64,000 bases of DNA from an uncultured Chlamydiales bacterium (GCA_963699155.1 OY969414.1:1643757-1707756), one strand, 5' to 3'; shown: positions 54,849-58,597, numbered from the stretch's first letter. Translations and numbers: made by a program. Notes: generated from the sequence alone by a model not told the origin.

Positions 54849-55613
54849 ATGATCGATCCCCTCTCCTTTCATATTTTAGATCAACGAAGGAAAGTTGCCA
54901 TTCCCGGAGATTCGGAAATCACCATCGCCTTTGCTGTCGAACAGTGGATGGAAATGGCCGAGACCGCTATCGAAGATCATGGCTTCTTTGCCGTCGCCCT
55001 CTCGGGAGGATCAACCCCCAAAAAGATCTATCAGCATCTCTCGCTCCTTTCCGAGCAACTCGACTGGTCCAAAGTTTTTCTCTTCTGGAGCGATGAGCGC
55101 AGTGTCCTTCCTTCTGACTCAGAAAGCAATTATCACATGGCTCTCGAAGAGGGGGGCCTAAAAAAACTGCCCATCCCGCAGAATCAGATTTTTCGCATGG
55201 TTGCCGAAGAAGAGATCGAAGCCAATGCCAAAGCCTATGAAGATATTATTCTCGATCGTCTCGGTGCCCACCCCTTTGACCTCGTCATGCTCGGCATGGG
55301 CGAGGATGGCCATACCGCCTCCCTCTTTCCCCACACTCAAGCCCTCAAAGCCAAGGGGCGCCTCGTTGTTCCCAATTATGTGCCCCAGAAGCATAGCTGG
55401 CGCATGACCTTCACTTACGAATGCATCAACCGCTCTAACAACATCTGCCTCTATGTGGTAGGCAGCTCCAAAGCTGAACTTCTAGAAAAGGTATTGTTAG
55501 GCCCCCTCACTCCCGAAACCTATCCCTCTCAACTCATTGGAACCGAGTCTCATCCAGCCCTCTGGATCTCTGATACCGAGGCAGGAAAGAACCTTCTCTC
55601 CCATTTAAAATAA
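54849..55613 (+). CDS. pgl: 6-phosphogluconolactonase
   Basis: ALSGGSTP, WSDER, SNY, LGMGEDGHTASLFP, RMTFT. Confidence 0.96.
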   Translation: MIDPLSFHILDQRRKVAIPGDSEITIAFAVEQWMEMAETAIEDHGFFAVALSGGSTPKKIYQHLSLLSEQLDWSKVFLFWSDERSVLPSDSESNYHMALEEGGLKKLPIPQNQIFRMVAEEEIEANAKAYEDIILDRLGAHPFDLVMLGMGEDGHTASLFPHTQALKAKGRLVVPNYVPQKHSWRMTFTYECINRSNNICLYVVGSSKAELLEKVLLGPLTPETYPSQLIGTESHPALWISDTEAGKNLLSHLK

Positions 55614-55632
55614 ATAGTTTATCTGCTATAAT
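55604..55632 (+). promoter_or_regulatory. Promoter of the first NHLP precursor
   Basis: TTTAAA (55604-09), 17 bp, TATAAT (55627-32) with extended TG; GAGGT RBS before ATG 55660. Confidence 0.55.
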
Positions 55633-55659
55633 AAGATTTAACATATTAGTGAGGTAATT

Positions 55660-56238
55660 ATGTCTGGGGTTAAAAGTTTTTTCGTCGATATTTCAACTAA
55701 CAAACAATATAGAGAACAGTTTAAAAAAGACCCAAAAGGTTTTTTAAAACAAAATAATATCCCTTATTCAGATCTCAGAGAGATCAAAATTGTAGAAGAT
55801 TCTGACGACAAAAAATATTTTGCCATCCGCACCCCCGAAGACATTAAAAAGACATTAGAGGAAGCACCTAACCTTCCTGAGAATCAAAAAGAGTTCTTTA
55901 AACAATTAGCGCAATCAAAAGAATTTCGAGAGAAATTTAAAGCAAACCCTCAGTCAGTTTTGAACTCCTTGAACATGGAACTTCATTATCGAAAGATTGA
56001 AGTCGTTGAGGACTCTGATAAGGTCTGTTATTGGATCCTTCCTGTATACCAGGAAATCAATGAGGACGAGCTCGCACAGATCGCAGGAGGACGAGACTAT
56101 TTAGGAGATGCTTTGAAGGATTGGGCGCCTGATAAAGGAAGAGCTTTTGCTACTGGATTCTTTTTTCCCGTGACATTTCCTGCCATAGGATTGCAAATAG
56201 GGGCTAACTGGCTGATTGATAAGATTACTGGCAAATAA
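55660..56238 (+). CDS. NHLP-leader (nitrile hydratase-like) precursor with tandem leader domains and 48-aa core
   Basis: Two copies of [FY]RE.FK.[DN]P...L.........I.[IV]VEDSD...Y..[IL]; EINEDELAQIAGG double-Gly site (G143-G144); no NHase CxxCSC metal motif. Confidence 0.85.
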   Translation: MSGVKSFFVDISTNKQYREQFKKDPKGFLKQNNIPYSDLREIKIVEDSDDKKYFAIRTPEDIKKTLEEAPNLPENQKEFFKQLAQSKEFREKFKANPQSVLNSLNMELHYRKIEVVEDSDKVCYWILPVYQEINEDELAQIAGGRDYLGDALKDWAPDKGRAFATGFFFPVTFPAIGLQIGANWLIDKITGK

Positions 56239-56469
56239 TCGTAGAGCTAGCTGTATCGCCACCATTTCTTTGGACACAAATTTGCGTAAATTTCTTCCGT
56301 CGCTTTAAAATTATTCTAAAATTCTCAGTTTTTGCTATCATATCCTTGCCAGAACAAAGTAGCCGTGCTCCCTCTCCAACCTCAGCTAACGCCGATAAAA
56401 TTTGTTCAGAAGGGTGTTCTTTGGAATATAACTCCCTGGCTTCCAGAGGGGAGTGATAATCTAGCTTTT

Positions 56470-57288
56470 CTAAAAGCCAGTGTTCATTGTACGACTTAAG
56501 AACTCTGCTACAGCCTTCCTAAAGTCTTCTAGGCCATGATAATGCCTACCGTGTACAATCTGCTCCTTAAATGTTCTGTGAAACCTTTCTATCACCCCGT
56601 TGGTTTCAGGCTCCTTCACAAAGCCCTTGCTTATACTTATGCCCCAGTACCGTGTTTGGTTAATAAAGCCTTCTGACATAAATTGAGAGCCATGATCTAC
56701 TCGTAAACTGACCCCACGAGCCACATTAGAGGATGTTTTGCTAAAAACAACCTCAACAGCCTTATTTAAGGCTTCTATTGCAGCAAATCGACTTCCTTTC
56801 TTTGTGACATGCCACCCTAGACATTCAGCATTCCAATGTTCAATTACTCCGAAAAACCACACCCACCCATCTTCGAGGGTGAAAATCTTAGCGGCATCTG
56901 TACCCCACATTTCATTGGGGCGGTCTGTTGTAATGCGTCCATCATGTAGGCGTTCTTTTCCCTGTTCAACGCGATACGGAGAGAGCATTTTATGCTCTCT
57001 CATTAGCTTCAAAACTCGATTCCGCCCAATATTTAGTTTCTTGAAGCGTTTTAATCGAGCATGTATTTTTCGATGTCCTTCTCCTTGAAAGTGGCTTTCG
57101 GATATGTCTTTTTTGATGGCCTCCAATAGATCATTGTCTGAGAGGGTCGGCTTTTTTCCTCGAAGCCCCTTAGGTTTATATGGCCGCTTTCTATTATGAT
57201 AGAAAGATGAGCGAGGAAACTTCCACACTGTACAAACTAATTCTACACCATATTTAAGATGGGTTGAAGGAGAGATCTTCTCGCTCAT
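56470..57288 (-). pseudogene. IS3 OrfB, frameshifted near the C-terminus
   Basis: gacttaagaac versus gacttaatgaac in copy 1; the protein diverges after AVAEF. Confidence 0.88.
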
Positions 57289-57596
57289 TTCTTGGACCTC
57301 CCCATACGAAAACCCGGTGCTTTGTTGGCCTTTATCTGCAAGAGCTCGTTTTCCATCATGAGCTCTCCCAGGCGTTTCTTAGCATGGTCTAATTCATGTT
57401 GAACAGGGTCTTCGGAACGCATTTTTAATCCCACTTCCATGCCCTGAATTGCTTTTGAATGCCATTCTTCGATTAAATAAGCCTCTACACCGAGTTCTCG
57501 ACTTAGTTTATCGATGGACTCTCCTTTTAATAGACGTAAGACAACTTCAATCTTACGTGCCGCGGTCCATCGTTTGATTTGACCACCTTCTTCCAT
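57285..57596 (-). CDS. IS3-family transposase OrfA
   Basis: Same 103-aa protein as 26164-26475. Confidence 0.92.
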   Translation of the reverse strand: MEEGGQIKRWTAARKIEVVLRLLKGESIDKLSRELGVEAYLIEEWHSKAIQGMEVGLKMRSEDPVQHELDHAKKRLGELMMENELLQIKANKAPGFRMGRSKK

Positions 57597-57665
57597 GTTG
57601 GATCTCCTTGGTTTTGCGATTAAGTATATCGCAAATCCGTGTCCAATGTTCTCGGTGGCAGTATA

Positions 57666-57812
57666 AAAGCAGAATTGGCTCAAGTATCAGGAGGCGGCGG
57701 TAATGTAGGCCAAAACCTAATGACTACAGGTCTGGGATTAATTTCATTTAATACGCTTGTAGGAGGCGCGCTATTACTTATAGGTAATATCTTAAAAGGT
57801 AAAGGAATATAA
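57666..57812 (+). pseudogene. IS-truncated third double-glycine precursor (leader end plus core)
   Basis: Manual translation KAELAQVSGG-GGNVGQNLMTTGLGLISFNTLVGGALLLIGNILKGKGI*, starting at the IS boundary. Confidence 0.8.
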
Positions 57813-57821
57813 ATAGGATAA

Positions 57822-57856
57822 GCTGGAGAAAACCTTCTAGACCATTTAAAATAAAT
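57822..57856 (+). repeat. Diverged duplicate of the pgl 3' end (55581-55615)
   Basis: 29/35 identical nt; AGENLLDHLK* versus AGKNLLSHLK*. Confidence 0.8.
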
Positions 57857-57919
57857 GGAAAAGTAAATAAAAAACTTATAACATATAGTTATAATTTTAA
57901 CTATAAGCGGGTAACTTAG

Positions 57920-57994
57920 GCTAGTTTTGCCAATCCGGTTGTAGGAGTCGGATTACTTATTGCAGGTTTAGTCCTTGAATTGCGAAAGAGGTAA
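57920..57994 (+). pseudogene. Relic of a fourth core peptide
   Basis: Manual translation ASFANPVVGVGLLIAGLVLELRKR*, homologous to the 57666-57812 core; in-frame TAG immediately upstream. Confidence 0.62.
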
Positions 57995-58006
57995 GGGGGG
58001 TTTTGT

Positions 58007-58597
58007 ATGGCTGAGACAGATATTTTTATTGATTTACTAGTCGACAAGCAAGTCAGGGAAGCATTCAAAAATGATCCCAAAGGCTTTTTGAAAAAAAATA
58101 ATATTCCCTTTCCTGATTCTAGGCAGATAATAGTCCTTGAGGATACTACAGATAAAAAATACTTTTCTATCCGTACACCTGAAGAGATCGAAAGGTTGCT
58201 CAGCGAACAACCTACTATTCCCGAAGATCAGAGGAATTTCTTGGAACAACTGGCACATTCCAAAGAGTTTCGAGTGATGTTCAAAGCCAACCCTAAACCT
58301 ATGCTCGAATCATTAAATATGCAGTTTCCCAATCAAAACATCGAGGTAGTCGAAGACACCGACAAGGTCTGCTATTGGATCCTACCTGAATATCTGGAGA
58401 TCACCGAAGAGGAGTTAATGGAACAGATCGCGGATGGAAAAAGTTTTGGTGACTATTTTGCTACTGAAGTCAAAAAAATGGCTGGGGGCACTGCACTCGG
58501 AGGATTCATGGTTGGAGCCACCACCCCACTCAGTTTTCCGTTAATGGCGGGCTACGCGCTTAGAGATTATATAGCAGATCGGATAGCTGGCCGTTAA
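58007..58597 (+). CDS. Second NHLP-leader precursor with tandem leader domains
   Basis: Paralog of 55660 (DPKGFLK.NNIP, KKYF.IRTPE, SKEFR..FKANP, IEVVED.DKVCYWILP); variant site EITEEELMEQIADG; Gly-rich hydrophobic core. Confidence 0.85.
   Translation: MAETDIFIDLLVDKQVREAFKNDPKGFLKKNNIPFPDSRQIIVLEDTTDKKYFSIRTPEEIERLLSEQPTIPEDQRNFLEQLAHSKEFRVMFKANPKPMLESLNMQFPNQNIEVVEDTDKVCYWILPEYLEITEEELMEQIADGKSFGDYFATEVKKMAGGTALGGFMVGATTPLSFPLMAGYALRDYIADRIAGR

Follow-up and report, generated by a model that had tools for sequence, protein, structure and literature searches.

Proteusins, e.g., those of the polytheonamide type, are peptides that are made by ribosomes and modified after translation (RiPPs) and whose precursors carry a leader of the nitrile hydratase leader peptide (NHLP) family, and class II bacteriocins and microcins carry double-glycine leaders that are short, generally about 15–30 residues. 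In the portions available to us of the paper that defined the NHLP family (Haft, Basu and Mitchell 2010; PMC2887384), the leader is tied to a three-gene transporter, such clusters are not always beside modification enzymes, the region before the cleavage site is said to resemble TIGR01847, and Victivallis is listed under a 'chlamydia group'. Cyanobacterial double-glycine bacteriocin clusters with NHLP/N11P precursors are described in the available part of Wang, Fewer and Sivonen 2011 (PMC3140520). For chlamydiae, the accessible text of a 2026 paper (PMC13229535) includes an antiSMASH-predicted 'proteusin' cluster in a chlamydial symbiont of Hydra, and that of Dharamshi et al. 2022 (PMC9666466) includes 'RiPP-like' clusters; a literature search on nitrile hydratase leader peptides or NHLP in Chlamydiae found nothing further. 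Here we analyze a stretch of 64,000 nucleotides (hereafter, the window) from an uncultured Chlamydiales bacterium (GCA_963699155.1, OY969414.1), i.e., positions 1,643,757–1,707,756 in a genome that forms a single contig (2,399,326 bp; 47.5% GC; completeness rated 100%). An insert between pgl and tsaD in this window encodes two precursors with tandem NHLP leaders (gene 1 and gene 2). We favor, with some reserve, the reading that each yields a leader-guided, probably unmodified peptide that is cut after Gly-Gly and exported in trans, a system of the known NHLM kind. Positions in the insert and its borders are counted from the first nucleotide of the window, and those of all other loci refer to the genome.

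Gene 1 (55660..56238, + strand; 192 aa) and gene 2 (58007..58597, + strand; 196 aa) both have ribosome-binding sites and full-length open frames, and each matches the NHLP leader model TIGR03793 in two stretches. The scores summed over the two stretches are 52.6 bits for gene 1 and 51.5 bits for gene 2 (cut-off 50.9), and in a six-frame genome search the single domains fall below the cut-off (37.6 and 18.3 bits in gene 1; 36.4 and 19.4 bits in gene 2). The two are NHLP-family proteins whose leader is a tandem of two NHLP domains. In gene 1, the N-terminal domain covers approximately residues 1–72 (55660–55875, +) and the C-terminal domain residues 73–144 (55876–56091, +), ending in AGG (GG at 56086–56091) and followed by a Cys-free core of 48 aa (56092–56235, +). 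The double leader of gene 2 (58007–58438, +) ends in ADG instead of GG and is followed by its core at 58439–58594 (+). The leaders thus end at residue 144 with ...EINEDELAQIAGG in gene 1 and ...EITEEELMEQIADG in gene 2; the terminus reads ELAQIAGG in the former and EQIADG in the latter, with Asp at the normally invariant −2 position. A second GG-type site in gene 2, EVKKMAGG, lies 17 residues downstream and ends at residue 161 (GG at 58484–58489, +). The sequence before the gene 1 site shows a TIGR01847-type likeness (16.2 bits; cut-off 15.7).

The two leaders are identical in 86 of 145 aligned columns (59%), versus 12 of 52 (23%) for the cores. The cores can nevertheless be aligned, are of similar length, and have in common the C-terminal motif [WY]-[LI]-x-D-[KR]-I-[TA]-G-[KR], which is present in other paralogs too, so that they appear to be divergent yet not unrelated. 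They comprise ~50 residues and are Cys-free, rich in Gly, Pro and aromatic residues, and partly hydrophobic, with helix-prone stretches. Each protein has a single Cys, located in the leader, and the CxLCSC metal motif of nitrile hydratase is absent from both. A word-indexed protein search with gene 1 returned solely the gene 1 and gene 2 proteins. A match of the gene 1 core in the ESM Atlas (best score 0.75, to a cluster auto-named 'Bacteriocin') was not used, as its score is under the level often reached by shuffled sequences.

The relationship to nitrile hydratase was also evident at the level of predicted structure. The profile of the nitrile hydratase alpha chain (PF02979, NHase_alpha) matched the two proteins weakly (E 1.7e-5 and 1.3e-4) and below the gathering score (24.8 bits for gene 1; cut-off 27.2). 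In an AlphaFold2 model of gene 1, which was given an alignment of 13 paralogs as input, residues 1–139 have pLDDT values of ~87–97 and form two repeats, each of three helices and a beta-hairpin, and the cleavage region and core (from residue 140) have pLDDT values below 50. When the leader model was searched against the PDB with Foldseek, the top 39 matches listed were all nitrile hydratase alpha or thiocyanate hydrolase chains, the best with an E of 7.3e-4, a probability of 1.00 and a TM of ~0.42. The 144-residue double leader is accordingly modeled as a compact unit of the NHase-alpha fold. A preliminary description of the window, made from its sequence alone, had proposed two intact paralogs in a low-GC insert between pgl and tsaD, with conserved leaders of ~144 aa that end as given above, divergent tails, membership in the NHLP family, and a relation to nitrile hydratase alpha that lacks the metal motif. 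These proposals were borne out, the family membership by a narrow margin.

Gene 1 and gene 2 are not orphans in their genome. The six-frame search with TIGR03793 returned 31 stretches at E ≤ 1, one of them in a frame full of stop codons, and the remaining 30 fall into 17 open reading frames (ORFs), 13 with a double leader (168–201 aa) and four with a single leader (114–133 aa). The aligned cleavage site is GG, GA or AG in 14 of these 17 precursors and DG in gene 2, and two have no such site. Only one precursor (565,456) lies within 3 kb of an exporter. With 17 precursors and two export loci in the genome, the term 'orphan' array used in the preliminary description has to be dropped.

A C39 peptidase domain is found at exactly two places in the genome; each time it belongs to an ABC subunit scoring over the TIGR03796 cut-off, and each time it lies outside the window. 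Export locus B (2,198,513–2,206,495) lies ~0.5 Mb from the window genes, which are found at 1,699,416–1,702,353 of the genome. It encodes, behind an upstream TolC-like ORF, an HlyD-type adaptor (TIGR03794, 199 bits; cut-off 156.2), a C39-containing subunit (ABC1; TIGR03796, 910.8 bits; cut-off 853.3) in which the catalytic ECGAAAL and NHF motifs are kept, and a second ABC subunit (ABC2; TIGR03797, 685.6 bits, just below the cut-off of 709.4). This ABC2 has a 311-aa N-terminal extension (2,203,493–2,204,425, +) outside the TIGR03797 match, for which no Pfam family was found at E ≤ 0.01. Export locus A (568,183–573,394), ~1.1 Mb from the window genes, comprises ABC2 (TIGR03797, 770.8 bits; cut-off 709.4), ABC1 (570,393–572,546, −; TIGR03796, 903.6 bits) and a short HlyD of 282 aa (TIGR03794, 143.2 bits, below the cut-off). 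In the C39 domain of locus A, the catalytic Cys is replaced by Ser (ESGAAAL) and the His is displaced, and this domain is probably not a working peptidase; the locus gives the impression of an exporter that is degenerate or does not cleave, and its C39-like domain may serve for binding. Because the C39 motifs are kept in locus B and the catalytic Cys is lost in locus A, locus B is the likely processing and export machine for the window genes. In named genome records, the nearest ABC1 belongs to an uncultured Chlamydiales metagenome-assembled genome (MAG; 74% identity), which lends support to a chlamydia-like placement. Next to locus B, an ORF of 257 aa (2,197,071–2,197,844, −) shows similarity to BlaR1 sensor domains and class D beta-lactamases (NF012161, 202 bits, under the cut-off of 250).

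As noted in the preliminary description, the window itself encodes neither a transporter nor a maturase, and its expectation that any partners act in trans agrees with the two NHLM export loci found elsewhere in the genome. For maturases, the genome has no match to YcaO (PF02624) or LanC-like proteins (PF05147). There is also none to the PoyD model TIGR04517, a result that is uninformative alone, as the model matched in no control genome either. The radical-SAM proteins (PF04055; n = 11) all belong to housekeeping families, i.e., MtaB, MiaB, MqnC, MqnE-like, RimO, HemW, HemN, LipA, two RlmN and EpmB, and none is a dedicated maturase. When all ORFs lying up to 4 kb from the 17 precursors were compared with one another, the only recurrent neighbors were an insertion sequence (IS) and one outer-membrane beta-barrel family; no concealed maturase and no immunity gene common to the loci came to light. 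No candidate ORF for an immunity gene was found in the insert beside gene 1 or gene 2. With no known maturase family in a genome rated 100% complete, it is doubtful that the earlier designation as 'RiPP' applies in its strict sense. Elsewhere in the genome, an ABC ATPase and an ABC-2 permease (2,173,731–2,175,448, +) are encoded directly 5' of a single-leader precursor (2,175,540), and it is possible that they form an immunity-type transporter for the peptide of that precursor.

The insert that carries the window genes spans 55614–58624 (3,011 bp). Its GC content is 40.7%, compared with 47.7% for the window and 50.7% for each of pgl and tsaD, whose identities were confirmed by TIGR01198 (172.8 bits; cut-off 124.45) and TIGR03723 (387.6 bits; cut-off 296.1), respectively. 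The insert is a lineage-specific gain, because two genomes of the same genus have pgl and tsaD adjacent without it (spacing of ~175 bp and ~300 bp). Besides the two intact precursor genes, it contains what is left of a third (its 3' part) and, less certainly, of a fourth, together with an IS element of 1,414 bp that accounts for 47% of its length; gene 2 ends 27 nt before tsaD. A promoter-like site 5' of gene 1 (55604..55632, +; TTTAAA, 17-nt spacer and TATAAT with a TG extension; 10/12 matches in a consensus scan) is a consensus match alone, with four such sites in the region versus a mean of 6.5 after shuffling. A 26-nt block upstream of gene 1 was considered as a shared regulon element and rejected, as it has only two occurrences genome-wide, both inside the insert. 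A scan of 55000–59000 against Rfam gave nothing at E ≤ 0.1.

The left border of the duplicated unit is the tail of pgl (last 33 nt and stop codon; 55581..55615, +), which is copy 1 of a 35-nt direct repeat (D1) and was found by repeat search to be 83% identical to 57822–57856. The latter begins a second, degenerate copy of the pgl tail and gene 1 upstream block (57822..57919, +), identified by DNA alignment with 55560–55680 and differing from the gene 1 region by a 16-nt insertion in the spacer. The copied tail translates as AGENLLDHLK followed by a stop codon, versus AGKNLLSHLK and a stop codon at the C-terminus of pgl. Because the pgl tail is duplicated within the insert, the array has expanded in place through local tandem duplication.

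Relic 1 (57666..57812, +), recognized by translation and tblastn as the 3' fragment of a third precursor gene, consists of the last leader residues KAELAQVSGGGG and a Gly-rich hydrophobic core, and is cut exactly at the end of the IS (57665). Its best non-self match in a whole-genome tblastn search is a paralog at 1247502–1247648 (E 3.2e-4), the next match having an E of 0.35, and we take it to be a genuine precursor-gene fragment. Relic 2 (57920..57994, +) starts at the position that corresponds to the gene 1 start codon in the alignment and has 24 codons, ASFANPVVGVGLLIAGLVLELRKR followed by a stop codon; its translation is hydrophobic and it has neither a start codon nor a leader. A tblastn search found no similarity to relic 2 in the genome at E ≤ 10, and it is plausible as a core remnant from its composition and its position behind the copy of the gene 1 upstream block. 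Of the two core relics in the preliminary description, the first is therefore real, but the second, without a similarity match, is weak.

The IS element (56252..57665, −), which went unmentioned in that description, is IS3-like and has rve, HTH_21 and HTH_Tnp_1 domains, with orfB at 56470–57288 (−) and orfA from 57285 upward (−). It starts 13 bases after gene 1 and abuts relic 1, and its best family model is that of IS3 (NF033516, 135 bits, below the cut-off of 160). At least 13 copies or fragments with 99.6–99.9% identity were detected in the genome (blastn), numbers that point to a recent expansion. Six of the nine full-length copies are flanked by exact target duplications of 14–15 bp, which is much longer than usual for the IS3 family, where they are usually 3–5 bp. 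No target duplication was found at the flanks of the copy in the window, and because of this the flanks do not appear to derive from a simple insertion. The loss of the leader from relic 1 fits an IS-associated deletion or recombination, and loss through IS-associated rearrangement is supported by these sequence features. As for the putative peptide-diversifying conflict system of the preliminary description, the leaders are better conserved than the cores, but the cores retain a similar length and a common C-terminal motif. The contigs from four soil-metagenome runs cover almost solely the multicopy IS; one of 166 nt matches the end of gene 1 as far as the IS border. Another contig, of 151 nt, joins the IS end (57648–57665) to 58177–58309 inside gene 2, which could reflect a population variant that has undergone additional IS-linked loss, although its IS side is just 18 nt and too short as a bridge. 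Two other precursors (in the regions 1,619,836–1,622,117 and 1,332,628–1,338,525) are likewise close to this IS, at distances of a few hundred bases to a few kb from a copy or fragment, and precursor genes and IS copies seem to gather in the same dispensable regions.

The distribution of the NHLP family was profiled across 400 genomes sampled evenly from the phylum, with TIGR03793 at E ≤ 1e-5 as the threshold for NHLP and TIGR03796 at E ≤ 1e-150 as that for the exporter. A total of 51 genomes were NHLP-positive, 39 of them over the TIGR03793 cut-off, and 65 encoded the exporter. The exporter was found in 37 of the 51 NHLP-positive genomes versus 28 of the 349 NHLP-negative ones, an association that is inflated by kinship. 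In the family with ~1-Mb genomes, none of the 29 genomes of the sample had a TIGR03793 match. In view of these counts, and of the 'proteusin' cluster in the accessible text of PMC13229535, the earlier proposal of a candidate new system, in a phylum from which no NHLP system was known, does not stand.

Among 28 other genomes of the same family as the window genome, no full-length double-leader relative of gene 1 was found, and the congeners match via single-leader genes only. Within the phylum, genome G114 (L046:6-8972) encodes a TolC-like protein, HlyD and a C39-ABC (ABC1) divergently beside five double-leader precursors of 201–223 aa, whose cores are Cys-free and rich in Gly and Ser; no maturase was seen there within 14.8 kb. 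Two further Chlamydiales genomes, G315 (L047:3345-6039) and G159 (L048:4989-7780), encode double-leader precursors whose cores are short and Cys-rich, and a gene for a fused TOMM leader-binding/YcaO cyclodehydratase (TIGR03882 and TIGR03604, 247 and 268 bits) comes directly after them; in these two the tandem leader serves a classical modified-peptide pathway.

A profile of the 13 double-leader paralogs was also searched against 1.84 billion representative proteins, with 7,201 matches at E ≤ 0.001 and 1,853 at E ≤ 1e-10. Of the top 150 matches, 11 come from the window genome itself; the other 139 without exception carry two (135) or four (4) NHLP domains. Cys-free cores were found in 70 of these 139. 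One four-domain match, a Calothrix protein, has the NCBI name 'NHLP leader peptide family RiPP precursor', and the closest relatives of the window subfamily are metagenome proteins without names. The tandem leader is common in databases, where it is annotated under the NHLP family name. No paper naming a tandem or double NHLP leader was found in the literature searched, which left subscription journals largely outside. A quick tree of the N- and C-terminal domains (66 proteins and four single leaders), in which 7 of 133 branches are well supported, has 28 label changes each for the N and C domains and does not separate them into two clean clades. For the window subfamily, a single supported clade (SH-aLRT 95) unites the N and C domains. 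Such a pattern would fit repeated duplication of the leader, though the tree is too weak to claim it.

Under the NHLM-type reading that we favor, the folded double NHLP leader would offer its Gly-Gly junction for processing by the locus B C39-ABC exporter. That machine would recognize the precursor in trans, cut after Gly143-Gly144, and export the ~50-residue, partly hydrophobic core across both membranes. No post-translational modification of the core would be expected, because the genome has no recognizable maturase. Gene 2, with Asp-Gly, would either be uncleavable at that site or be cut at EVKKMAGG 17 residues on. The array began as an insertion 3' of pgl, grew by local tandem duplication, and is now eroding, with one copy truncated beside the IS and one leaderless. 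Both the processing and export in trans and the lack of modification are probable on the gene content of the genome. What the released peptide does is a matter of speculation by analogy and from composition; it might be membrane-active against competing bacteria or on host membranes.

Several observations weigh against this reading. The TIGR03793 margins are just 1.7 and 0.6 bits and are reached solely by summing two domains, and the structure model was built on an alignment of 13 paralogs only. The exporter is ~0.5 Mb away, so that its link to the window genes is one we infer. The cleavage site of gene 2 has Asp at −2, a GG-type site is missing from two of the 17 paralogs, and locus A, with Ser for the catalytic Cys and a 282-aa HlyD, indicates that parts of the system are decaying. 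Unlike in many bacteriocin loci, no immunity gene adjoins gene 1 or gene 2. Finally, a genome without known maturase families could still encode a maturase of an unrecognized one.

The last point leads to a rival explanation, in which the window genes are true RiPP precursors and a maturase of an unrecognized family, encoded elsewhere, binds the double leader and modifies the core before export. NHLP leaders are maturase docking sites in other systems, the double-leader precursors of G315 and G159 directly precede a fused TOMM cyclodehydratase, and a folded 144-residue leader seems beyond the needs of export alone. We nevertheless consider such a maturase unlikely, given a genome without a YcaO or LanC-like gene in which 11 of 11 radical-SAM proteins are housekeeping, the absence of a recurrent enzyme neighbor at the 17 precursor loci, and window cores that are Cys-free where those of G315 and G159 are Cys-rich. 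Members of the Chlamydiales live inside eukaryotic cells, and the peptides could instead target the eukaryotic host or its membranes, as effector-like or pore-forming molecules, and not rival bacteria. The Chlamydiales lineage (with the closest ABC1 from a Chlamydiales MAG at 74% identity), the lack of immunity genes beside the precursors, and the hydrophobic, helix-prone stretches in the cores are in line with a host target. It appears distinctly unlikely, as no similarity to known effectors was found and the export trio is tied to bacteriocin-type peptides in the available portions of PMC2887384.

The array might also be a decaying remnant that is neither processed nor exported and persists only because decay is slow. 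Both genes retain full-length frames and ribosome-binding sites, with a promoter-like site at gene 1, and the identity of 59% in the leader versus 23% in the core is as expected under selection for recognition; locus B is intact and 13 double-leader paralogs are still open. We regard a mere remnant as quite improbable on these grounds, even though it would account for much of the erosion seen, i.e., the two relics among the four array units, an IS copy whose missing target duplication points to rearrangement, ADG in place of GG in gene 2 and the two paralogs without a site, the lost catalytic Cys of locus A, and the insert missing from two congeners.

Beyond the preferred reading of NHLM-type export, a more far-reaching idea, which is doubtful at present, is that the tandem NHLP leader is a distinct class new to print, in which the duplicated fold, possibly arisen several independent times, would act as a pseudo-dimeric carrier that keeps an unmodified membrane-active core soluble and inactive until its removal by C39. 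If this were true, an intracellular bacterium could field 17 dispersed peptides without maturases or immunity genes. Independently of it, the analysis suggests that, in some environmental chlamydiae, a single distant exporter serves a large and rapidly turning-over set of bacteriocin-type precursors, which is of relevance to the ways in which intracellular bacteria compete or cope with their hosts. The tandem-leader form of the NHLP family is likewise brought to attention, and for annotation the lesson is to weigh a 'lone' precursor gene in the context of the complete genome.

Compared with modified-peptide systems, the window genes share the tandem-leader architecture with the TOMM-coupled precursors of G315 and G159, which are from the same phylum, but differ from them in having no Cys-rich core or adjacent YcaO-type maturase, in a genome without YcaO. 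A TOMM would be recognized by a YcaO/SagD cyclodehydratase and a Cys/Ser/Thr-rich core, and here there is no PF02624 and the cores have no Cys; a lanthipeptide would be recognized by LanM or a LanC-like cyclase, and the genome has no PF05147. As in proteusins, the leader is unusually long, of NHLP type and similar to nitrile hydratase alpha. In contrast to proteusins, the genome yielded neither a PoyD-type epimerase nor another radical-SAM maturase, and the cores are long, Cys-free and hydrophobic. The likeness to class II bacteriocins and microcins lies in an unmodified peptide that would be freed by a C39-ABC after Gly-Gly, and in a TIGR01847-like site; the difference is in the folded 144-residue leader and in that no adjacent immunity gene was found.

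The cyanobacterial clusters, so far as the available part of PMC3140520 describes them, likewise combine a C39-ABC, HlyD and a second ABC without peptidase with several NHLP precursors per genome. The long-type transporter described there has ~300 extra N-terminal residues, comparable to the 311-aa extension of the locus B ABC2. The precursors in that part of the paper come from regions around transporter clusters and are up to 164 aa in size, whereas those of the window genome are dispersed, 168–201 aa long and double-leadered. The system is not new in kind; the family is known, and what varies is the architecture and the genome layout. Relative to the NHLP precursors and NHLM export trio (TIGR03793 with TIGR03794, TIGR03796 and TIGR03797) in the portions of PMC2887384 at hand, it differs in its tandem NHLP leader, in an intact exporter ~0.5 Mb off and not adjacent to the window genes, in its 17 dispersed precursors, and in having no known maturase family. 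It agrees with them in the leader family, the Gly-Gly junction, and the set of C39-ABC, second ABC and HlyD, as well as in several paralogous precursors with variable cores for which a maturase in the cluster is dispensable.

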